Of a stretch of DNA of 64,000 nt, positions 2,002 to 20,730 are shown piece by piece. Source of the DNA: a virus; IMG/VR virus record IMGVR_UViG_3300022927_001391, positions 32,001-96,000 of that record. One strand, written 5' to 3'. A program made the translations under genes and the position numbers. Every line of letters begins with the position of its first letter. Positions within the stretch are counted from its first letter, which is position 1. Under the pieces are notes generated by a model that was given only the letters and a program-made list of their open reading frames with translations, ran no database searches and was not told the DNA's origin.

Positions 2002-2627
2002 TGCACTTTTCCGTAAAACTTCTGCCCATACTGATAAGTCCACAACTAGACTGCATTTGGATTAATATTCCAAAGAACGCTAGCAGTTTTATGCAGAAGA
2101 TACTACAGGATAATGGCTGGCGTGAGCCAGATTCTAGTATACGGCTTGATCTATTAAACAGCAGTATTCGTAAACTTTGTATTTTTAGAAATCCTGTTGA
2201 AAGATGGATCAGCGGTTTTGCAGAATGTTTTATGGATATGCCGGAGATCATTGATTTATTAGACACCCCAGCATTTATAAAAGTCGTAGAGCGTTCTCCA
2301 ATATTTGATAATCATACAGAATTGCAGAGTACATTTGTAATTAATTCCACAAATCTAGAATATATTCATTTAAGATCTGTAGTCGACGCCAATAGTTTTT
2401 TTACTAACGTGGAACAGTGGATAAAAGAGAACGGTGGTCAGGCTGACTGTGGTAGATGGCAGGATCCAATAAACCCCAGTAGCAATGACGAAATAAAGCA
2501 TATGATTAACAAGAAATTGAAAAAAATAGTCGAACAGAATACACTTCTAAGAGCATCGTTAGATAATTTTTTCTCTCCTGATGTAGAATTGATTAATAAA
2601 GCAAGAAGAATATCCTATGGAAACTAA
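2001..2627 (+). CDS. Sulfotransferase family protein (Sulfotransfer_2-like)
   Basis: 5'-PSB motif INIPKNASS and 3'-PB motif FRNPVERWISG. Confidence 0.75.
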   Translation: MHFSVKLLPILISPQLDCIWINIPKNASSFMQKILQDNGWREPDSSIRLDLLNSSIRKLCIFRNPVERWISGFAECFMDMPEIIDLLDTPAFIKVVERSPIFDNHTELQSTFVINSTNLEYIHLRSVVDANSFFTNVEQWIKENGGQADCGRWQDPINPSSNDEIKHMINKKLKKIVEQNTLLRASLDNFFSPDVELINKARRISYGN

Positions 2628-4074
2628 CCTAACTGCACAACAATCAGACTATGCTGTGTTCCTCCCAGCACTCAGTAGTTTTTATTCTACGTTTGTGGGT
2701 AGACAGCGATATGAAAACTATGTTGATCCAGCACGTATTCCCAGTCACTTTACTAACGGTTTAGAGAGTGGTAACTGGTTGAGTAATGATGGTCTGTTTA
2801 ATTACAAGTGGAGTCTGTATAGTTCAGGACATGTGGACTTAGACACTACCAAGCATCTCCCTAAAGAAGCAATGATACGTGAACGTGATCGTAGCACAAG
2901 TTTTATTGTTGGTGACTCAGGTGGATATCAGATTGGTAAGGGTGTATGGGAAGCAGACTGGAAGGATCCCAACTGTCCTAAAGCTCACGCCAAACGTGAC
3001 GCTGTTCTAAAGTGGATGGATGCCTATATGGATTACGGCATGACACTTGATGTTCCAAGTTGGTTACAGCGTAGTAGTCAGGAAGCCAGAGATCGTACCG
3101 GCATTCATAGCTATGAAGATGCGTGTTCAGCAACTGAGATCAATAATGAATATTGGATACGTAATCGCAAGGGGGAATGTCGTTTCCTAAACACACTTCA
3201 GGGTGAGAATCATACAGAGGCAGATGACTGGTACAACCGTATGAAGAAATACTGTGATCCAAAACAGTATGAGAATCACTTTAATGGTTGGGCAATGGGT
3301 GGACAAAACGTAAGTGATGTGCACCTTATTCTAAAGCGTATAGTTACTCTAATGCGTGATGGCTTACTTGAAAAGGGACTACACGATTGGATGCACGTAC
3401 TAGGTACTAGTAAACTAGAATGGGCGTGTCTACTAACAGATGTTCAACGTGCGGTACGCAAACATTACAACGAGAACTTTACTGTCAGCTTTGATTGTGC
3501 CAGTCCTTTCCTTGCAGTAGCAAATGGTCAAGTATACTATCAGCTTACAATGGAAGATCGCAAGCGTTGGAGTTATCGTATGACGAAATGCTTTGACGAT
3601 AAGAACTTGAGCAAGGATACTACACCGTTTGGACAGGCATTTGTGCGCGAAGGCTGCGCAGAGTCATTCCATGAAACAGTTGTAAGCAAGGGACTTACAG
3701 CAGCAGACATTTGTGCATATAGTCCTGGTGACCTAAATAAAATAGGCAAGGAAGGACGCACAAGCTGGGATAGTTTTACATACTTCCTACTAATGGCGCA
3801 CAGTGTAGCCCTTCATATTGAAGCGTGTCAGGAAAGCAATAGACGTTACGATAAGGGCATTATTCCCAGTATGTTGGTGCAAGAAGACTTTGATCGTGTA
3901 CTAATGCGTGACATAATTAATGAAATAATTGGTTGCGCGGATTCAGATAAGGCGTTACAATTAGTAGACGAGTACAGCAAATTATGGATGGAAGCAGTGG
4001 GTACTCGAGGTTATACCGGTAAACGTGCTATAAATTCTAATACAAAATTTTATGATCTTTTCCAAGAGGTTTAG
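2617..4074 (+). CDS. dpdA: DpdA/TGT-like 7-deazaguanine transglycosylase
   Basis: TGT-fold motifs in order: DSGGYQ, LDVP, GWAMGG, HVLGT, SFDCASP (nucleophile Asp); no tRNA-TGT CxCxxC zinc motif; folE/queD/queE/yhhQ nearby. Confidence 0.8.
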   Translation: METNLTAQQSDYAVFLPALSSFYSTFVGRQRYENYVDPARIPSHFTNGLESGNWLSNDGLFNYKWSLYSSGHVDLDTTKHLPKEAMIRERDRSTSFIVGDSGGYQIGKGVWEADWKDPNCPKAHAKRDAVLKWMDAYMDYGMTLDVPSWLQRSSQEARDRTGIHSYEDACSATEINNEYWIRNRKGECRFLNTLQGENHTEADDWYNRMKKYCDPKQYENHFNGWAMGGQNVSDVHLILKRIVTLMRDGLLEKGLHDWMHVLGTSKLEWACLLTDVQRAVRKHYNENFTVSFDCASPFLAVANGQVYYQLTMEDRKRWSYRMTKCFDDKNLSKDTTPFGQAFVREGCAESFHETVVSKGLTAADICAYSPGDLNKIGKEGRTSWDSFTYFLLMAHSVALHIEACQESNRRYDKGIIPSMLVQEDFDRVLMRDIINEIIGCADSDKALQLVDEYSKLWMEAVGTRGYTGKRAINSNTKFYDLFQEV

Positions 4075-8860: not shown

Positions 8861-9359
8861 TCATATTGATCCTTTTTGGGACGACGAATATAAAAGTTTG
8901 TCGTATAAGTTAGAACCTTTTAACAATCGAGACGATCTAACTGAGTGGAAACGACAAGGATATGTACATCCTGAAAGTCATTACACAGGCTTCCTATGTG
9001 ACATGCGTAGCCCTCAACCTGGTTGGAATGACAAGGTTATGCACTGGGCAGAGGATCAATTTGGTCTTAAAGACATAGGTACAAGTTACTATAGAATGGG
9101 TACAGGTGTAATATTGCCTTGTCATAAGGATACCTATGCAAAGTATTGTGAGTTGTTTGATTTAAAAGTCAGTGATTGTGAACGTATTGTCGTATTCCTT
9201 GAGGACTGGCAGAGTGGTCATTACTTCGAGATAGATGGCTGTGGAAAAGTAAATTGGAAAAAGGGTGACTATGTTTACTGGAAAGGCGACACAGAACATA
9301 TGGCTGCAAACTTAGGTACCACAAAGAGATACACACTTCAAATAACAGGACACAAATAA
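8838..9359 (+). CDS. 2OG-Fe(II)/cupin-fold oxygenase-like protein
   Basis: HKD...H metal triad and RYTLQIT C-terminal strand; paralog at 50815. Confidence 0.6.
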
Positions 9360-10534
9360 TGAAACGTATATTATTACTAGGTAGCGGTGAACTTGGCAAG
9401 GAGTTTGTTATCAGTGCTAAAAGACTTGGCTGTTATGTTGTTGCTTGTGATAGCTATGCAGGTGCGCCGGCGATGCAAGTAGCAGATCAATATGTTGTTT
9501 TTGATATGTTAGATGGCGAAATGTTATCTAATATTATAGATGAATACAAACCAGATCTCATAGTACCAGAGATTGAAGCTATCCGTACAGAAGTCTTACT
9601 GGAAAAGGAAACACAGGGTTATACAGTTGTTCCTACAGCAAGAGCAACTAACCTAACAATGAATCGAGATCGTATTAGGGATCGTGCAGTTGAACTTGGT
9701 TTGCGTACAGCAAAGTTTGAATATGCTGAGGATTTAGAAATACTACAAAGTGCTTGTAGACGGATTGGGTTTCCCTGCGTTGTAAAGCCTGTAATGAGCT
9801 CAAGCGGTAAAGGACAGAGTGTAATTGATGAGGAGCGTGAGGTGGATGCTGCATGGAAATATGCAGTATCAGGCATGCGTGGCGACAGGCAGCGTGTTAT
9901 TGTAGAAGAGTTTATTGATTTTGATTTAGAACTTACACTGCTAACTGTAAAGCAACATGATGGACCTACGCTTTTCTGTCCACCAATTGGTCATTATCAG
10001 GAGCGTGGAGACTATCAGTACAGTTGGCAACCTGCACTAGAACAAACTTTTACAGGGCATATTATCGAAACACATGCACAAGAGATGGCAAAAATCATTA
10101 CAGATGATTTGGGTGGTGCTGGTATATTTGGTGTAGAGTTTTTTGTTAAGACCAAAGGCAATAGTCCTGAGGTTATCTTCAGCGAACTGAGTCCACGCCC
10201 ACACGATACTGGAATGGTAACCATGTTTACGCAAAACCTAAGTGAGTTTGACTTACATGCAAGAGCTATACTGGGATTACCAATTGGTGAAATTAAACTG
10301 GTACGTCCGGGCGCAAGTCACGTTGTACTAGCACATGAAACTATACATGAGTTTATTATAAGCGGTATTAACGATGCACTTAAAATACCAGACGTTGATG
10401 TAAGAGTGTTTGGTAAGCCTACGACTAGACCATATCGTAGAATGGCAGTTGTACTTGCACCTAGTTTAGAAATTGCAAAAGAAGCAGCCGGTAAAATTAG
10501 TGTGATAGATATTGCAAGTGATGCAGGTGCATAA
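9359..10534 (+). CDS. purT: Formate-dependent phosphoribosylglycinamide formyltransferase (ATP-grasp)
   Basis: [52 protein letters not shown]. Confidence 0.93.
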
Positions 10535-11136
10535 TGGAATACAAAATTTTAGATAAGTTTGAACATGCGCTTAGTGTATATACTGGTGCACCATTTGTTG
10601 TACTCACTGATAGTTGTACTCATGCTATTGAACTTTGTCTACGACTAAAGCATCCCAAAGGACCTGTAATACTTCCCAAACACACCTACATTAGTATCCC
10701 AATGACAATACACAAGTTGGGATTAGAGTTATATTGGGACAAGGATTATAACTGGGAGTATGAATATCGTATTGCTCCTACAAATATCTGGGATAGTGCT
10801 AGAGCATTTGATGAAAATATGTATGTCAGCGGTCGTATGCAATGTCTAAGTTTTGGCTGGGATAAACGTTTGGCTATTGGTCATGGCGGTGCTATTCTAC
10901 TTGATAGTAGGAGCGATTACTTCCAGTTAAAGCGTATGGCGTATGATGGCAGAACGTTAGATACTTCTCCTTGGGAGAATCAAACTTATTGGCGTTTAGG
11001 GTTTCATTACAATATGAGACTAGAAGATGCAGCAAAGGGCATAGATATGATGTTTCATCCAGAAGAAATGCCAAACAAAGAAAGTCAGTTAAAGACTTAT
11101 CCAGACTGTAGCAATATTAAAGTTGACTTATCTTAA
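10534..11136 (+). CDS. Short DegT/DnrJ-like PLP sugar aminotransferase
   Basis: DSCTHAIEL, DSA, SFGWDK, GHGGAIL, GFHYNM; only 200 aa. Confidence 0.7.
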   Translation: MEYKILDKFEHALSVYTGAPFVVLTDSCTHAIELCLRLKHPKGPVILPKHTYISIPMTIHKLGLELYWDKDYNWEYEYRIAPTNIWDSARAFDENMYVSGRMQCLSFGWDKRLAIGHGGAILLDSRSDYFQLKRMAYDGRTLDTSPWENQTYWRLGFHYNMRLEDAAKGIDMMFHPEEMPNKESQLKTYPDCSNIKVDLS

Positions 11137-11151
11137 TTTATATCTTATAAT
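11123..11151 (+). promoter_or_regulatory. Sigma70-like promoter TTGACT-N17-TATAAT (ATCT before -10)
   Basis: Seen directly upstream of folE. Confidence 0.75.
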
Positions 11152-11178
11152 TAAAAAAATTACAAAGGAACACAGTAC

Positions 11179-11859
11179 ATGAGAAAGACTTCCGATATTA
11201 TTCGTAATCGCATTCGCGAGACAAACACACGTTTTCATTCTAATGATAACATTAGTGAGTTCATTGAAGAAGGTGAACTGACACTACTTCAACAAGAAGT
11301 TGAAGATAGATTCCAAGAAGTTCTCGATGCACTAATAATTGATACAGAGAACGATCACAATACACAAGAGACAGCCAAGCGTGTTGCCAAGATGTTTATT
11401 AATGAAACATTTGGCGGCCGTTACGCACCAATGCCACGGGTTACGGCATTTCCTAATATGGGTTACAAGAGCATGTATACCAGCGGCCCTATTAGTATCC
11501 GTAGTACCTGTGCTCACCACTTCCAAAACATCGTGGGCAACTGCTGGGTCGGAATTATCCCAGAAGATGAAGTAATTGGTCTTAGTAAGTTCAATCGCAT
11601 CATTCACCATATCGCTGAACGCCCACAGATTCAGGAAGAAATGACTACACAGATTGCAGAAGCATTAAAAGAATATGCAAAGACAGAGCATATCGCTGTA
11701 GTAGTTAAAGCTGAACATCATTGTATGACACATCGTGGTGTTCGCGAACATGAGAGCGATATGACTACCGCAGTGATGTGTGGTGGATTTCTAAATGATC
11801 CAAGTGTAAAGCAGGAGTTTTACAACATCTGTTTGAGCATGAAGGGTCATAGTAACTAA
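11179..11859 (+). CDS. folE: GTP cyclohydrolase I
   Basis: TAKRVAKM, STCAHH, GLSKFNR, QIQEEMT, HHCMTHRGV. Confidence 0.95.
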   Translation: MRKTSDIIRNRIRETNTRFHSNDNISEFIEEGELTLLQQEVEDRFQEVLDALIIDTENDHNTQETAKRVAKMFINETFGGRYAPMPRVTAFPNMGYKSMYTSGPISIRSTCAHHFQNIVGNCWVGIIPEDEVIGLSKFNRIIHHIAERPQIQEEMTTQIAEALKEYAKTEHIAVVVKAEHHCMTHRGVREHESDMTTAVMCGGFLNDPSVKQEFYNICLSMKGHSN

Positions 11860-11873
11860 TCAGGGAGAAACAT

Positions 11874-12497
11874 ATGTTGAAGTTACTAGAAGGTGTAGAT
11901 CGCAAGTTGGTTAATCAGCTTGTTATCATGCACGTAATCGTAATTGCACTTTCAAATTACTTGGTGCAGTTCAAGTTTAACCTGTTCCCAGGTGCTAACT
12001 TGCCATTCTTTGGTGAGTTTCCACTTGCAGTTGCAGCATTTACATTTCCAATTGTAGTTGTTGCCACTGACTTGACCGTCCGTATGGTGGGCAAGGAAGC
12101 AGGCAGGGCAGTTGTTGCCCTAGCAGTCATCCCAGCAATCATTGTAAGTATTTTGGTTGTTTGGGGCGGCGGTGCACCAGTTGAGAAGGCACTACGTATT
12201 GGTGCAGCAAGTGGTGTTGCATATGGCGTTGGTACAATGCTAGACGTTTATGTATTCCAGCATATTCGTGAGAAGTTCACAGAGATGTGGTGGGCTGCTC
12301 CAGCATTTTCAACAGTCTGTGCAAACGTACTAGACACTTATGCGTTCTTCTATACAGCATTTTATCCAGCACCTTGGGTACATGCTGTTGCGTTCAACCA
12401 AACAATTACAAAGATCGTTGTAGGGTTGATTGTGTTCCTACCAGCATATGGTTTCCTACTAGGCCATCTGCGTAAGAAACTAGGGCGTACTCTATAA
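11874..12497 (+). CDS. yhhQ: Queuosine precursor (preQ0/preQ1) transporter, YhhQ/Vut family
   Basis: Multi-TM protein; ALSNYLVQ, FTFP..VATDLTVR..G, LDVYVF, WW.APA.ST, DT..F. Confidence 0.88.
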   Translation: MLKLLEGVDRKLVNQLVIMHVIVIALSNYLVQFKFNLFPGANLPFFGEFPLAVAAFTFPIVVVATDLTVRMVGKEAGRAVVALAVIPAIIVSILVVWGGGAPVEKALRIGAASGVAYGVGTMLDVYVFQHIREKFTEMWWAAPAFSTVCANVLDTYAFFYTAFYPAPWVHAVAFNQTITKIVVGLIVFLPAYGFLLGHLRKKLGRTL

Positions 12498-13281: not shown

Positions 13282-16200
13282 ATGACTTATAAGACACTAG
13301 CAAGCGCATTGCTCGCCACTACAATGCTGACAGCGTGTCAGGGTGGCGGAAGCGCAGTTAACACAGTAAAGCGTGAACTTAGTCCTACAGCGAATATCAA
13401 TTTTGCTGCTATCTCAGGTGAAATTTCTGCTCTAGAGGCAGCAGTAATGGAAGCACAGGGCGCATCAAGCCTTAGTGCAATCCTTAATCCTACACAAGCA
13501 GACAAACATATGGCAGGAGACATTGTCAGCAAGATTGACAATGTTATAGCTAGTTGGGATAGCCATAAGGCAGAAATGAATGCCAAACTCTTGGCAGTAA
13601 AACTAGCTGATCCTGACTTTCAGAAAGCTGAAGCTGTAGTAAACATCCTCAAAAATCAGGTGCGTCCACTTGTTGTTAACGTAACTGAAGGCAAGGCTTA
13701 CGATACTACCAAGTTTGTCTTTATGGAAAAGAAAGAATCACTGGATAAGGTTATTGAAGATACTAAAAAGGATATCTTTAATAATGTTGTACCAACTCTT
13801 ATTAGCTCAAGCACAAGCGCAGTAAAGGTATCTGAAACTACAGCTACAAGTTCGGCAGAGCGTATTAGTGAAACCGTTGTTACAGACGGTGAGCAGACAG
13901 TGCGTGGCGGCACTGGAATTAGTGACCTAACTCGTACTGCTAGCTGGACACGCACTACAACTAAGAAGATGGTATATGATCGTAGCTGGAGTGTTACATT
14001 ACAGAACGTAACAACCTCTGTATTCAGCGATGGTACAACTAAGACTGAAAATGGTGCAGAACGAGAAGTTCCTTATAAGGTAACTCTTGATGCATCACCG
14101 CAGGTAAGTACTGAATCGCTATCTAAAACTATTGCTTACAGTGTTAAAGAAAATAACGATCCTGCAATTACGGTTACACGCGGTTCAGCGTCAGTCGAGA
14201 ATGTATACGAAGATCGTGTAGAGAAGGTTACACAGAGTGATGGTAGCATTCTACACAATACGATTCGTAAGACAACTACAACGACTACCACGCCAGTTAC
14301 TACTACTAAAACTTATCCTAAGATCAGCGTCTATACATATGAGGATGGACACTCGTTCACTCATGATGCTACGGATGAAGTTATTAGTAGTGTGGAAAAC
14401 GAAGTAGTAGTAACTACTAGTGAGTCCACTATTAACTCAACTACTGAACATGTGGTTACCAAGGAAACAACAACAAACGAAATCATTACTGAAGTAGTAG
14501 AGAGCGAGCCGGTATTTGATACTGTTTATGAGGATAAAACTACAACTGAAACAGTTGATAGCAAAATCATTACAACAGTTACTCGTTACTATACCACTAC
14601 AGCCACAGTAACAACTACTACTACCACAAAAACTACTCCAGTCACCAAGCAGATTTGGACTGATGGTACTGAGAAGATTATTCGTGGTGACACTGTTACT
14701 GATGTAAAGACTGCTAGTACTGTTGCCAAGGATACCTGGACCAAGGTAATGAGCACCACAACCACAGATGCGCCGGCTGATACTACGCCTATTGCTGACG
14801 ATCACCCGGATATGGGAACTCGCACAGCAGGTTATAATACTGATCCAACAAGTTATCGTACATCAGAATTTACAGGCACTAAAGGCGTAAACTTTCTGAG
14901 TGCTGTTAAAGCAGATGTTGCTTACTCACGTGGTTGGACAGGTAAAGGCAGTCTAATTACCATTGCTGATACTGGCTGGGACAGAGATCATACAGATCTT
15001 TCTAGTGCGGTGAAGCATGAGTATAATACACTAACTGGCGGCACTAACACTTTTATGGATGACAACGTTGGTCACGGTAGTCATGTGTTGGGCATCGCGG
15101 CTGGGCGTAAGAACGGGTCAGGCATCCACGGTGTTGCATTCGATGCAGACGTAGCTGTAGTTAAGGTGACTGACAGCACTGTTTATAGCTTCCAGCGAGC
15201 TAGAGCTGGCGCAGCATGGGCCAGAGATTTGGGTAGTATTGCTTTCAGTGCCAGTGCAAACTGGAATGAAGACAGTGCGTTCAGAAGCAGTATCGTAAAT
15301 ATCGGTTCTGGAATGAATTACAGTAATCACTGGTACTACGGTGAGAATGGATACAATGGTGCTGTAGACGAAGCCAAGTTGTGGGCGACTGCACTAGGTA
15401 GCGAACAGATCCTTGTGAACAGTGCTGGTAACTTTGCTAAAGACTATGTATCAGGCAGTGCACAGATGGCCCATGCTACTGATGCAAATGGAAACCTTAT
15501 TATGGGCGGACGCATGCTGATTGTTGGTAGCTATGATGTTACTAACAATAAAATCTCTAGTTTCAGCAACAAGGCTGGTACTGTTTGTGCCACCTGGGAC
15601 TTTACAAATAATCTCTGTAAAGATGCTGCAAGGGCTAGCGACTTCTATATCCTTGCTCCAGGCGAACGTATTGAAAGTGCTTACAAGGATGGCACAACTG
15701 TAACAATGAGTGGTACAAGTATGGCTGCTCCTGTGGTTACAGGATCACTTGCTATCCTACACCAGATGTGGCCACATATGAAAGGTGAAAACCTCGTTAA
15801 ACTTGTTCTGCAGACTACTAACAAGGACCTGCCAGGTTACACTGTGGAAACACATGGACAAGGCATGTTGGACTTGGACAAGGCTACACAGCCTGTAGGT
15901 GCAACAGGTATTCCAACAAGCGGGCGTACGAGTGGTGCTATTGCTAACCTTGAAACACTAAGTGGTGGCGCTGCTGTCGGAAGTATTAGTAGCGATGCAT
16001 TTGCGGCACTAAGTAATGTTACGGTGCTTGATAGCTTTGAGCGTGATTTTACAATCAATCTAAACAACACTCAAGCTATTGATACTCGTCCTGGATCGTC
16101 AACAGAAGCACTAAGTTTTGGTGCAAACTATGACGGTTATTGGAATCTTGCTAATGCCGGCGAAGGCACTAGTGACTTGTTTGGTATTAGGACATCATTC

Positions 16201-16830
16201 AAGTTTGACCCAGATGCTAAAGCCAATGGCGACTGGGGCATGCGTACAGAGTATGATGTGCATAGTAGCGAAGAAACTACTATTACTGCCGCACTTGGAA
16301 TGATTAAGGAGACAGGTAAGTTCCTTAACAACGTTCAGGAAGGCTTTATGGGAGTTGGTGAGTCACACACCACAAACTATGCAGGCTTGCGTCTCAATCA
16401 CAAGTTTGATGAGAACTGGTTTGGGTTTGGTAACTTCCAGTTGGGCATGACAGACGTTGAGTCATCCAAGGAGTTTAGTCTAGTAACTGGGTACAGCACC
16501 CTAGTAAGTAACAGTTGGGGTGTCGGTGCAGGTTACAAGTTTACTAACGGGTGGACTGTTGGCGCTAACTTTAGTCAGCCAATGACAGTTACAAGCGGTA
16601 AGATGAACTACAAGGTTCCAGTAGGACGTACACTTGACGGACAGGTATTATTTAATGAAGGAAGTGCTGATGCAAGTACGAAAAATATTGAATATGATAC
16701 CGGTTTGTTTGTAAAATATAATGTAAACAATGTTGCACTTGCTGGCTATGCAGAGCATCGTAGCAATGTTGCAGGTGTCTCAGGTAACAATGAAGTTAAC
16801 CTAGGCATGAAAGTGAACTTGAAGTTCTAA
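13282..16830 (+). CDS. Lipoprotein S8 (subtilisin) serine protease with Thr-rich stalk and C-terminal beta-barrel-like domain
   Basis: Lipobox LTAC at Cys19; catalytic IADTG, GHGSHVLG, SGTSMAAP; oxyanion NSAGN; amphipathic strands ending in terminal Phe (MKVNLKF). Confidence 0.85.
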   Translation: MTYKTLASALLATTMLTACQGGGSAVNTVKRELSPTANINFAAISGEISALEAAVMEAQGASSLSAILNPTQADKHMAGDIVSKIDNVIASWDSHKAEMNAKLLAVKLADPDFQKAEAVVNILKNQVRPLVVNVTEGKAYDTTKFVFMEKKESLDKVIEDTKKDIFNNVVPTLISSSTSAVKVSETTATSSAERISETVVTDGEQTVRGGTGISDLTRTASWTRTTTKKMVYDRSWSVTLQNVTTSVFSDGTTKTENGAEREVPYKVTLDASPQVSTESLSKTIAYSVKENNDPAITVTRGSASVENVYEDRVEKVTQSDGSILHNTIRKTTTTTTTPVTTTKTYPKISVYTYEDGHSFTHDATDEVISSVENEVVVTTSESTINSTTEHVVTKETTTNEIITEVVESEPVFDTVYEDKTTTETVDSKIITTVTRYYTTTATVTTTTTTKTTPVTKQIWTDGTEKIIRGDTVTDVKTASTVAKDTWTKVMSTTTTDAPADTTPIADDHPDMGTRTAGYNTDPTSYRTSEFTGTKGVNFLSAVKADVAYSRGWTGKGSLITIADTGWDRDHTDLSSAVKHEYNTLTGGTNTFMDDNVGHGSHVLGIAAGRKNGSGIHGVAFDADVAVVKVTDSTVYSFQRARAGAAWARDLGSIAFSASANWNEDSAFRSSIVNIGSGMNYSNHWYYGENGYNGAVDEAKLWATALGSEQILVNSAGNFAKDYVSGSAQMAHATDANGNLIMGGRMLIVGSYDVTNNKISSFSNKAGTVCATWDFTNNLCKDAARASDFYILAPGERIESAYKDGTTVTMSGTSMAAPVVTGSLAILHQMWPHMKGENLVKLVLQTTNKDLPGYTVETHGQGMLDLDKATQPVGATGIPTSGRTSGAIANLETLSGGAAVGSISSDAFAALSNVTVLDSFERDFTINLNNTQAIDTRPGSSTEALSFGANYDGYWNLANAGEGTSDLFGIRTSFKFDPDAKANGDWGMRTEYDVHSSEETTITAALGMIKETGKFLNNVQEGFMGVGESHTTNYAGLRLNHKFDENWFGFGNFQLGMTDVESSKEFSLVTGYSTLVSNSWGVGAGYKFTNGWTVGANFSQPMTVTSGKMNYKVPVGRTLDGQVLFNEGSADASTKNIEYDTGLFVKYNVNNVALAGYAEHRSNVAGVSGNNEVNLGMKVNLKF

Positions 16831-18587: not shown

Positions 18588-19149
18588 AACACACAAAGAC
18601 TGGATCTCAGAGGATGAACATGGCATGTTACAAGCATTGGTGTTGTATGCTCCACGCTGGCGTTTTGGTCAGGTAAGCGACAATACAATCCAACCAAACT
18701 ATCCCATGTGGTTCCAAAACTTTTGGGATATTAGAACATTTGAGTTCAAACCAGATCAAGAGATAGTGACCAATCTGTTACGTTCACTAAAAGATAGATT
18801 TTTAGAGTTATGCCCGGGCAATTATAAACTTGTTAGGTTTATGGCCAGTAGTAATACGTTTGGCATTGATGGTGATATCCATACAGACTGGCCACATCCT
18901 GATGTAAGTATTACAGGTGTACTTTATACAGACAAGGTATGGGAACAGAACTGGGGCGGGGAAACGGCCTTTTATAAGGATGGTGTCGTAGAAGCTAGCG
19001 AATATGAACCCAGAAAGCTTATTACATTTGATAGTAGTATTGCCCATGTAGGCAAAGGGCCGCAGCGACGTTGTAAGGAAATGAGAACAATTATAGCGTT
19101 TCAAGCAGTTAGCGAAGATGCTCTAAATGCTAAAATGAGAAAGAATTAA
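18574..19149 (+). CDS. 2OG-Fe(II) oxygenase (prolyl-hydroxylase-like)
   Basis: HTD, WGGET.F, FDS...H, R..IAF; GTG start with GGAG RBS. Confidence 0.8.
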   Translation: MALFETHKDWISEDEHGMLQALVLYAPRWRFGQVSDNTIQPNYPMWFQNFWDIRTFEFKPDQEIVTNLLRSLKDRFLELCPGNYKLVRFMASSNTFGIDGDIHTDWPHPDVSITGVLYTDKVWEQNWGGETAFYKDGVVEASEYEPRKLITFDSSIAHVGKGPQRRCKEMRTIIAFQAVSEDALNAKMRKN

Positions 19150-19970
19150 TGATCATAACTGGCGATGGTGGATTAGATAACTGGTATAATGTCACTGTAA
19201 ATACGTCATTGAACACATTTGAGGTTAATTTTAATCACAAGTCTCCGGCTCGACAACTGAATTTTTTTGAAGCTGCTGATTACACTGCAAGAACAATAGC
19301 TGAAAAATACAAAGATATCTTCCTAGGACTTAGTGGAGGCATGGATAGTCAATTTGTTGCTGAAACTTTGTATAAAAATAATATTAACTTTACACCATTA
19401 ATAGGAATAAACCCTACTAATAATGATCATGAATTTGCTATAGATTGGTGTAATGCGCGGAATATAAAATCTATCATTCTTGACTTAGAATTTTATTCAC
19501 AAGATATTTTAAAAATTTATACGACCTTTTTAAAAAAAGTTCCGTTTGTTAATATAGGAAATTGCATAGATCTTTTTTTAAGTAGTATTGCAAAAAAACA
19601 TTCTGGTCATTTAATAGTCGGTGGTCCTACACTTCCTTTAACACCTTATCACCCAAAGCAAGCTAGTAAAGAACCCATTTATTCTGTAGAGATAAGTGAA
19701 TTTGCTCTTGAGTTGACCAATCAACTAATTGGTGGATTCTTCTTCTTTACTCCCGAAATTCTACTATCACAGGCAATCAATCTAGATATTACAAAGACGG
19801 ATGATTACTCTCGAGCTGCTTTATATAATTTTCCTGTCAGACATAAGACACTAGAATATAGATTATTTCCAGATTCTATTCATCTTAAACTAGTACATAT
19901 AACTAAAAATAGAAAAATCAATAACCAAGATTGGTCAAAAACTAATCTCATTAACTTACTTCAGAATTAA
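19149..19970 (+). CDS. PP-loop (HUP/N-type ATP pyrophosphatase) domain protein
   Basis: LGLSGGMDS motif; lacks QueC zinc cysteines; AT-rich. Confidence 0.6.
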   Translation: MIITGDGGLDNWYNVTVNTSLNTFEVNFNHKSPARQLNFFEAADYTARTIAEKYKDIFLGLSGGMDSQFVAETLYKNNINFTPLIGINPTNNDHEFAIDWCNARNIKSIILDLEFYSQDILKIYTTFLKKVPFVNIGNCIDLFLSSIAKKHSGHLIVGGPTLPLTPYHPKQASKEPIYSVEISEFALELTNQLIGGFFFFTPEILLSQAINLDITKTDDYSRAALYNFPVRHKTLEYRLFPDSIHLKLVHITKNRKINNQDWSKTNLINLLQN

Positions 19971-19971
19971 A

Positions 19972-20000
19972 TTGACTCTCAATCATAAATATCTTACAAT
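19972..20000 (+). promoter_or_regulatory. Sigma70-like promoter TTGACT-N17-TACAAT (ATCT before -10), with CATAAATA late-like box in the spacer
   Basis: Seen directly upstream of the queD leader. Confidence 0.7.
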
Positions 20001-20011
20001 GTAATTACATT

Positions 20012-20069
20012 AGAGGACTAAGGTGTTCGACCCTCTTTAAATATTCCGCACACTCCATAACCAAGGAGT
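20012..20069 (+). ncRNA. Candidate cis-regulatory pseudoknot (preQ1-I-like riboswitch variant) in the queD leader
   Basis: P1 AGAGG/CCTCT; P2 GGTGT/ACACT; A/U-rich linker; alternative hairpin ACTCC/GGAGT covering the SD. Confidence 0.5.
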
Positions 20070-20075
20070 ATAAAC

Positions 20076-20549
20076 ATGGCAAAATATATTAGTACAAAAA
20101 CATACAGGCATTTAGGTCCAGTAGCATACAGACAGTGGAGAGCAGATTCACACTGCAATCTTATCCACGGATACGCATTAAGTTTCCATTTTGAATTTGA
20201 AACTGATGACCTAGATGCTCGTAACTGGGTAGTAGACTTTGGTGGATTACGTCCACTAAAGGATAGCTTAGAAGATTGGTTTGATCACACTCTGCTAGTA
20301 GCACAGGATGATCCAGACCGCGACACGCTACTAGAACTAGGCAAGAAAGGCCTAGCAAAGATTACAGAAGTTGAAAAGACTGGATGTGAAGGTCTGTCAG
20401 ACTTTTTGTATGAATACGTAAACACAATATTTTTACCTAGTTGGGAACCTGGCACTAGGGTATGGTGCTGTAAGGTTGAGGTAAGAGAAACTGACTCAAA
20501 TATGGCTATGCGAGTTGGTCACAGAGAAGATGGAGAATTCGATGTTTAA
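20076..20549 (+). CDS. queD: 6-carboxytetrahydropterin synthase
   Basis: HCNLIHGY, WVVDFG, FDH, CE, VEVRETDSN. Confidence 0.9.
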   Translation: MAKYISTKTYRHLGPVAYRQWRADSHCNLIHGYALSFHFEFETDDLDARNWVVDFGGLRPLKDSLEDWFDHTLLVAQDDPDRDTLLELGKKGLAKITEVEKTGCEGLSDFLYEYVNTIFLPSWEPGTRVWCCKVEVRETDSNMAMRVGHREDGEFDV

Positions 20550-20730
20550 ATGCATTATGAAATGGCTAGGAGTTGGAGACACACCTGCTGTTATTACAGA
20601 AGCTGAGCTTAACAAGATGACAAAGAAGCAAGTTGATGACTGGGCAGCAGATCATGGTATCAACCTCGATCGTCGTCTTACAAAGGCTAAGATGATTGAT
20701 GAACTAAAAAAACACGTAACTGTAGACTAA
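20542..20730 (+). CDS. Small Rho-N/HeH-like nucleic-acid-binding protein
   Basis: LNKMTKKQV...A..HGI......TKAKMIDEL; GGAG RBS. Confidence 0.5.
   Translation: MFKCIMKWLGVGDTPAVITEAELNKMTKKQVDDWAADHGINLDRRLTKAKMIDELKKHVTVD

Follow-up and report, generated by a model that had tools for sequence, protein, structure and literature searches.

The leader of a queD-like gene in a viral contig encodes an RNA pseudoknot that is under selection: both of its helices, P1 and P2, covary, whilst its loop nucleotides, the cytidine of loop L2 and a U·C mismatch within P2 are invariant. The motif is, moreover, tied almost exclusively to queD. The contig was studied as a 64,000-nt stretch of DNA, referred to throughout as the window, taken from a 105-kb viral record whose completeness is put at 29% by CheckV. 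That the motif is a real, widespread and phage-specific structured leader is almost certain, and it has a trait that is general among riboswitches, a covarying and conserved 5'-leader structure consistently associated with one gene. We consider it likely that the queD leader is a metabolite-sensing riboswitch and, with slightly less assurance, that nucleotides 20012-20054 are the aptamer of a phage-specific, queD-associated riboswitch candidate situated near the predicted mRNA 5' end, in which binding of the ligand would turn expression on.

A covarying pseudoknot in the queD leader

The elements of the leader, and the genes to which reference is made below, have the following window coordinates.

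11179-11859, + strand: folE
11874-12497, + strand: yhhQ-like gene
19972-20000, + strand: sigma-70-type promoter, TTGACT (19972-77), 17-nt spacer, TACAAT (19995-20000); 10/12 match to consensus
20012-20016, + strand: P1 5' strand, AGAGG, pairs with 20032-36; 98% of cells paired, with double compensatory changes at two positions
20017-20021, + strand: L1, first nucleotide variable (A/U/C), then C-U, then 0-8 variable nucleotides
20022-20029, + strand: P2 5' strand, distal GGUGU (20022-26), unpaired U20027, proximal C20028 and G20029
20030-20031, + strand: L2, A followed by invariant C20031, which abuts the P1 3' strand
20032-20036, + strand: P1 3' strand, CCUCU (covariation counts in the text)
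20037-20046, + strand: L3, 10 nt, A-rich, consensus n-U-A-n-A-n-A-n-U-C
20047-20054, + strand: P2 3' strand, proximal C20047 and G20048, unpaired C20049, distal ACACU (20050-54)
20052-20056, + strand: anti-SD, ACUCC, overlaps the last three P2 nucleotides and forms the MFE hairpin with 20065-69
20065-20069, + strand: Shine-Dalgarno (SD) core, GGAGU, 6 nt 5' of the ATG
20076-20549, + strand: queD-like gene, PTPS fold, 157 aa, ATG at 20076; candidate regulated gene

The 20012-20054 segment is an H-type pseudoknot of ~43 nt, in which P1 and P2 cross and the P1 strands are separated by a 15-nt loop. An initial annotation made from the window sequence had recognized P2 as a pairing of 20022-26 with 20050-54; this helix is present and covaries, but at 5 bp it was drawn too short: P2 occupies eight positions, 20022-29 with 20047-54, arranged as 2 bp, a U·C mismatch and 5 bp. 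The mismatch, U20027 opposite C20049, is invariant, and beyond it lie the C20028-G20048 and G20029-C20047 pairs. In the set of leaders retrieved through their QueD proteins (below), the C and U of L1 are invariant, as are C20031 and, in L3, the A residues at positions 3, 5 and 7 and the U-C at 9-10. The first L1 nucleotide varies across copies (A 48%, U 30%, C 22%; A20017 in the window). L2 reads N0-2 then C in all copies; since this C was fixed by the pattern used for the larger scan, the evidence for its invariance is the QueD-retrieved set, not the larger one. Folding of the single sequence recovers P1 together with the anti-SD hairpin, with a nested MFE z-score of -0.15, no better than shuffled sequences: the window alone therefore cannot decide whether the pairing is due to chance, and it is the comparative data that settle the question.

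With QueD as query, a protein search identified 80 viral loci that are 80-100% identical, 44 of which have the motif in the leader; the helix sequences of these 44 differ and their complementarity is kept. Viral contigs were scanned with a pattern composed only of the letters that never vary, all helix positions being left free except for two P1 G-C pairs; two versions of the pattern, each matching at least ~120 contigs, produced at least 200 distinct copies. Pairs were counted on the 198 distinct viral copies listed, at fixed offsets from the invariant anchors and with no fitting. P1, found where the initial annotation had placed it, covaries: among these listed copies its position 2, free in the pattern, is 98.5% paired (G-C 179, C-G 11, U-A 5), and position 3, also free, 99.5% (C-G 89, A-U 76, U-A 32). 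The distal P2 positions d1-d3, beside the mismatch, are 84-92% paired in the same copies, as against 39-41% with shuffled partners, and include all Watson-Crick types; on the other side of the mismatch the C20028-G20048 pair is invariant, and 20029 pairs with 20047 as A-U (115 copies) or as G-C (83 copies), without exception.

MAFFT, applied to copies of mixed length, put P2 out of register, and was replaced by the anchors, by a gapless length class and by CM alignment. The gapless alignment of 55 sequences is 91.8% paired, against 71.1% when shuffled, and its covariation value, 0.558 against 0.181, was equalled in 0 of 500 shuffles; sliding the register of this alignment leaves 36-53% paired. 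For the 93 distinct CM-aligned sequences the values are much the same: 93.6% of cells paired against 71.6%, covariation 0.571 against 0.167, again with 0 of 500 shuffles as high, and changes on both sides in 8 of the 12 pairs. The CM was built on P2 only, so that P1 is unfitted in this alignment. Covariation in related phage leaders, proposed with the initial annotation as a check, is thus found in both helices.

The proposed link between pseudoknot and queD is borne out by the same census: among the matches listed, a QueD homologue lies 15-45 nt 3' of the motif in 192 of the 198 distinct copies that have a downstream ORF, and in the listed copies these homologues are 31-100% identical to the window protein, with a median of 58%. 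The CM finds a single copy in the window, at 55.7 bits (next best 9.9), and a single copy in the whole 105-kb record, with none before folE (11179-11859) or the yhhQ-like gene (11874-12497); 94 of 100 sources have one copy per locus. It also recovers three variants missed by the pattern (L065, L078 and L079), with an 11-nt L3 and a small ORF between motif and queD, so the family is broader than the fixed-length census pattern. In these variant loci (L078:2750-3003, L079, L065:2664-3003) the intervening ORF is of 58 aa in L078 and longer in L065.

Both patterns were also run on 596 Gb of prokaryote genomes, where they gave 173 parsable matches. P1 is fully paired in 12% of these, against 88% of the viral matches listed, and P2 pairing in the prokaryote matches looks random. 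Eight true copies are present among them, all before queD, and the well-paired matches fall among these eight. From this control it follows that the motif is essentially viral and that the pattern alone does not create pairing. The eight copies (L336, L351, L368, L397, L404, L418, L427 and L555) are on MAG contigs, several of ~5-6 kb and some assigned to Bacteroidota (Haliscomenobacter, Crocinitomicaceae) or to Rickettsiales. Mis-binning of phage DNA, or prophages, may account for these copies, which may also hint at hosts.

Not every queD has the element. About 45% of close QueD homologues in viral contigs are without any leader, no copy turned up when three leader variants were compared by blastn with 50,697 phage records, and at the four cultured-phage queD loci inspected (Acidovorax ACP17, Xanthomonas X1 and BUDD, Dinoroseobacter R26L) queD directly adjoins the gene before it, which leaves the motif no space. 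The leaderless homologues and these four loci show the element to be dispensable.

Promoter placement and expression platforms

The promoter which the initial annotation had located at 19972-20000 is present there, and places the predicted transcript start at 20006-20008, ~5 nt before P1. Promoters matching at least 10/12 of the consensus and ending 5-19 nt before P1 are found in 34% of the 194 listed motif copies, against 0.5% at control positions, and in 21 of the 27 copies of the window's platform class (class 1, below). With its promoter so conserved in placement, the predicted aptamer would start at, or a few nucleotides after, the mRNA 5' end.

Four platform classes were distinguished among 186 leaders.

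Class 1 (the window): ACUCC at the P2 end pairs with the SD
Class 2: the last two C residues of P2 plus UAUG pair with CAUAGG of the SD region
Class 3: CUCC, formed by the L3 end and the first P2 base, pairs with an SD 3-5 nt after P2
Class 4: UG(C/U)C of P2 plus AUC pair with GAUGGCA, i.e. with the start codon

The initial annotation had proposed that the anti-SD (20052-56), in pairing with the SD (20065-69), overlaps the P2 3' strand. The overlap is there, 20052-54 being shared by P2 and the anti-SD helix, and the three other classes have the same exclusivity in different sequences; that one overlap is achieved by four different sequences speaks for selection on mutual exclusivity, and hence for an ON switch. 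In the window, the duplex energies of P2 (-5.2 kcal/mol) and of the anti-SD helix (-5.4 kcal/mol) are nearly equal, as those of a bistable element would be, and the anti-SD hairpin folds at -6.3 kcal/mol (z = -1.72). The anti-SD is kept throughout the window's class, where it changes only from C to U, compatibly with G·U pairing.

The SD starts 3-28 nt past the P2 end across the leaders, and 10 nt past it in the window. When P2 is modelled as open, at least 2 nt of the aptamer 3' side pair with the RBS in 94% of the 186 leaders. This pairing averages 4.4 nt, against 3.1 nt in shuffled controls, or 3.1 against 2.2 bp in a version based on base-pair probabilities; the excess of complementarity over shuffled controls, 1.2-2x, comes partly from composition, and since the leaders are related, p-values overstate their independence. 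Locking the aptamer raises modelled SD accessibility from 0.41 to 0.68, a rise that is in part trivial since locking any upstream segment removes pairing partners; in the identical leaders L084 and L221 the modelled probability that the SD is unpaired goes from ~0.2 to ~0.8. The complementarity of the aptamer 3' side to the SD or start codon in all four classes suggests an ON switch and, supposing that the leader is a metabolite-sensing riboswitch, ON is the logic that we favour, with moderate confidence.

Leaders of classes 1 and 3 almost always have the upstream promoter; only 2 of the 59 class-2 leaders do. Classes 2 and 4 are mostly without it, and their motif lies ~10-16 nt after the upstream ORF. 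A near-consensus sigma-70 promoter is embedded in the element itself in 42 of the 59 class-2 leaders (e.g. L163:1140-1224, - strand): its -35, TTTACA or TATACA, consists of the last P1 base and part of L3 and is followed, after 17 nt, by an extended -10, TGcTATAAT, that lies in the loop of the anti-SD hairpin and ends 16-19 nt before the start codon. A transcript from this promoter-like site would lack the aptamer.

Gene context, candidate ligands and rival explanations

The product of the ORF starting at 20076 matches Pfam PTPS at 2.6e-14 and PHROG 2389 (QueD-like) at 8.7e-41, and scores below the NCBIfam QueD equivalog cut-off. Directly 5' of the promoter is a 273-aa gene (19149-19970, +) with weak NAD-synthase/PP-loop similarity (Pfam 0.008; NCBIfam nadE 5.6e-4); its product is no canonical QueC, and could conceivably be an amidotransferase-type enzyme acting in the queD pathway. 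On the other side, a 71-aa ORF (20515-20730, +) overlaps the end of queD and sits 5' of a QueE-like gene; its C-terminus is weakly similar to two PHROGs (prohead protease inhibitor, 3e-7; endonuclease VII, 3e-5). Other loci likewise have small ORFs after queD, in clusters of 58-66 aa. Among the neighbours at 9359-12497 and 13282-16830 (+) are a PurT-like ATP-grasp enzyme, a short fragment of a DegT-family aminotransferase, FolE, a Vut_1/YhhQ-like transporter and a 1182-aa subtilase-domain protein.

Genes 3' of queD vary among the motif loci, so that there is no shared operon partner to hint at the ligand: the QueE-like radical-SAM gene is one of several partners, and the two commonest downstream-gene clusters, neither of them related to QueE, match nothing in Pfam or NCBIfam. 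The pathway at large was surveyed in 51 records, namely that of the window and 50 other motif-bearing records of at least 40 kb, which are mostly fragments of ~280-380 kb phages.

FolE: 31 of 51 motif-bearing records
QueE-like radical-SAM: 30 of 51
QueC: 5 of 51, weak N-terminal PP-loop matches only
Pfam TGT: 0 of 51, a set that includes four records 98-100% complete

Pfam TGT/DpdA had no match in the window's record or the 50 others, though a divergent DpdA could escape this model. The label dpdA-like, tried for a 485-aa ORF (2617-4074, +), is not borne out by sequence searches: Pfam, NCBIfam, PHROGs and PDB sequences gave no match at the thresholds applied. On the evidence of this gene survey the pathway looks like FolE-QueD-QueE without QueC, which points to a QueC-less 7-deazapurine or pterin route in the motif-bearing phages. 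With canonical QueC essentially absent, preQ0 and preQ1 may not be made by these phages; a ligand other than preQ1 is plausible, given such a pathway. Its product may serve in DNA, in tRNA or elsewhere, and the phage DNA-modification pathway suggested in the initial annotation is one possibility among these.

We envisage that a small molecule with a guanine-like face, either a 7-deazapurine (CDG, preQ0) or a pterin intermediate (H2NTP, CPH4), would bind at the P1/P2 junction and stabilise P2. P2 so stabilised would withdraw 20052-54 from the anti-SD hairpin (20052-56 with 20065-69), and opening of the hairpin would free the RBS and turn queD translation on, putative co-transcribed downstream genes following suit; without ligand, the hairpin would hold the SD. 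The most specific form of this proposal, a new class in large uncultured phages in which a preQ1-I-like knot binds a non-preQ1 ligand and activates queD translation as feed-forward control, is put forward tentatively, as possible rather than probable. The most plausible candidates for such a ligand are H2NTP, CPH4 or CDG from the QueC-less FolE-QueD-QueE route, or another guanine-faced compound. Against a ligand-induced ON switch it can be said that, should the ligand be the end product, a biosynthetic gene would seldom be controlled in this direction, that the first L1 nucleotide, a ligand contact in preQ1-I, is not conserved in the queD-leader motif, and that transcripts from the promoter-like site embedded in 42 of the 59 class-2 leaders would lack the aptamer.

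The leader could instead be a divergent OFF switch of preQ1-I type, in which a pseudoknot stabilised by the bound end product, preQ0 or preQ1, represses queD, whether by hindering 30S access just 5' of the SD or by stacking on, or stabilising, the RBS hairpin. End-product repression is the rule for que genes, the SD of class 3 begins just 3-5 nt after P2, and P1 is often AGAGG/CCUCU, which we take to be that of the B. subtilis preQ1-I element; the topology, the 5-bp P1, the L2 cytidine before the P1 3' strand and the A-rich L3 are likewise those of preQ1-I (PMC10622847). Yet the RF00522 model, at E ≤ 10, matches neither the window leader nor any of 15 other copies, nor this locus when run on the 105-kb record; the SD lies outside P2, 3-28 nt from its end (10 nt in the window); the aptamer 3' side competes with the RBS instead of pairing to it in the folded state; and canonical QueC is essentially absent from the motif-bearing phages, so that preQ0 and preQ1 may not be made by them. 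Repression by either route appears to us distinctly unlikely.

A role that involves no metabolite, as an operator bound by QueD or another phage protein, or as constitutive 5'-end protection or translation tuning, would fit with the position of the element at the extreme 5' end of the predicted transcript in classes 1 and 3, with its unremarkable single-sequence thermodynamics, and with the internal promoter-like site of class 2, which suggests a second, DNA-level role; small pseudoknots act as protein operators elsewhere, e.g. rpsO/S15 (PMC3985624). However, ~15 invariant unpaired nucleotides within ~43 nt, and an invariant U·C mismatch with covarying pairs on either side, are what a tight ligand pocket typically shows, and the motif goes with one enzyme gene only, even where the QueD proteins are as little as 31% identical. 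Protection of the 5' end would in any case not apply to classes 2 and 4, since their layout, mostly promoterless and ~10-16 nt after the upstream ORF, probably makes the motif internal to longer transcripts. We rate a non-metabolite role as rather unlikely. As to chance complementarity in an A/T-rich leader, which the nested MFE z-score of -0.15 would allow, covariation in 8 of the 12 pairs across the ~200 distinct copies listed and the sharp contrast with the chance matches in prokaryotes have already refuted it, and we give it negligible weight.

Confirmation of binding would make the queD leader a new riboswitch class, almost all of whose carriers are viruses. Its logic would probably be ON, whereas the switches known from this pathway are, to our knowledge, all OFF. 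With ~43 nt it is small enough for immediate structural work, and its natural variants, at least ~200 with four expression platforms, are a ready-made mutational series. If true, our reading of the leader as a metabolite sensor also points to a small molecule important in infection by widespread ~280-380 kb aquatic phages; these phages have FolE, QueD and a QueE-like enzyme, but neither a QueC nor a transglycosylase that can be recognised, so that through the riboswitch an uncharacterised branch of 7-deazapurine/pterin metabolism would become accessible.

Comparison with known RNA families

Rfam 15 at gathering thresholds detects no family in the whole window, and at E ≤ 10 nothing relevant on the leader (19900-20200) or on 15 other copies; this covers preQ1-I, -II and -III, which are among the families for which the initial annotation had advised a search. 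Run over the 105-kb record, RF00522 (preQ1-I) has no match at the locus, and its best elsewhere, 13.6 bits, is to be set against a gathering score of 39 bits. In the literature we found no description of a queD-leader RNA, the sole match to 'phage-encoded riboswitch' concerning a marine methylophage.

A parallel in switch logic is the add adenine riboswitch of Vibrio vulnificus, a translational ON switch in which the 3' strand of an aptamer helix doubles as anti-SD and ligand frees the RBS; its three-way-junction purine fold is unlike the queD-leader pseudoknot. SAM-II and SAM-V (RF00521, RF01826), common in marine bacteria and metagenomes, are also classical H-type pseudoknots of similar size, but their models have no match here, other nucleotides are conserved in them and their context is of methionine/SAM genes. 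PreQ1-II and preQ1-III (RF01054, RF02680) are likewise pseudoknotted 7-deazaguanine sensors that control translation, but have larger folds of HLout type with extra helices, and no match at E ≤ 10.

It is preQ1-I that the queD leader most resembles. PreQ1-I is defined by its H-type knot, 5-bp P1, A-rich L3 and conserved first L1 uridine; its specificity cytidine is the last L2 nucleotide and adjoins the P1 3' strand, and its short P2 contains the SD, giving OFF logic (PMC10622847). The queD leader too is an H-type pseudoknot of the ~35-45 nt size range, with a 5-bp P1 and, after the P1 3' strand, an A-rich L3 so placed that it could follow the minor groove of P1 and contact it; C20031 occupies the position of the specificity cytidine, with a putative role in ligand binding, and the gene that follows belongs to the queuosine/7-deazaguanine pathway. 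The differences are as clear. P2 has eight positions (2 bp, the invariant U·C, 3-5 bp), where that of preQ1-I has 3-4 bp. L1, of about 5 nt or more, opens with a variable base followed by C-U, in place of the conserved U that contacts ligand in preQ1-I; L2 is of about 2-3 nt; and L3, of 10-11 nt, ends in U-C whereas that of preQ1-I ends in A. P2 is without the SD; from the competition of its 3' strand with the RBS, ON is predicted where preQ1-I is OFF. The motif occurs almost exclusively in viral contigs. The initial annotation, in likening the leader to preQ1-I while remarking that loop and tail differ, had read it correctly: the layout is shared, and RF00522 does not detect it. Judged by sequence and layout, the queD-leader RNA is a new family with preQ1-I-like architecture, outside preQ1-I as defined.
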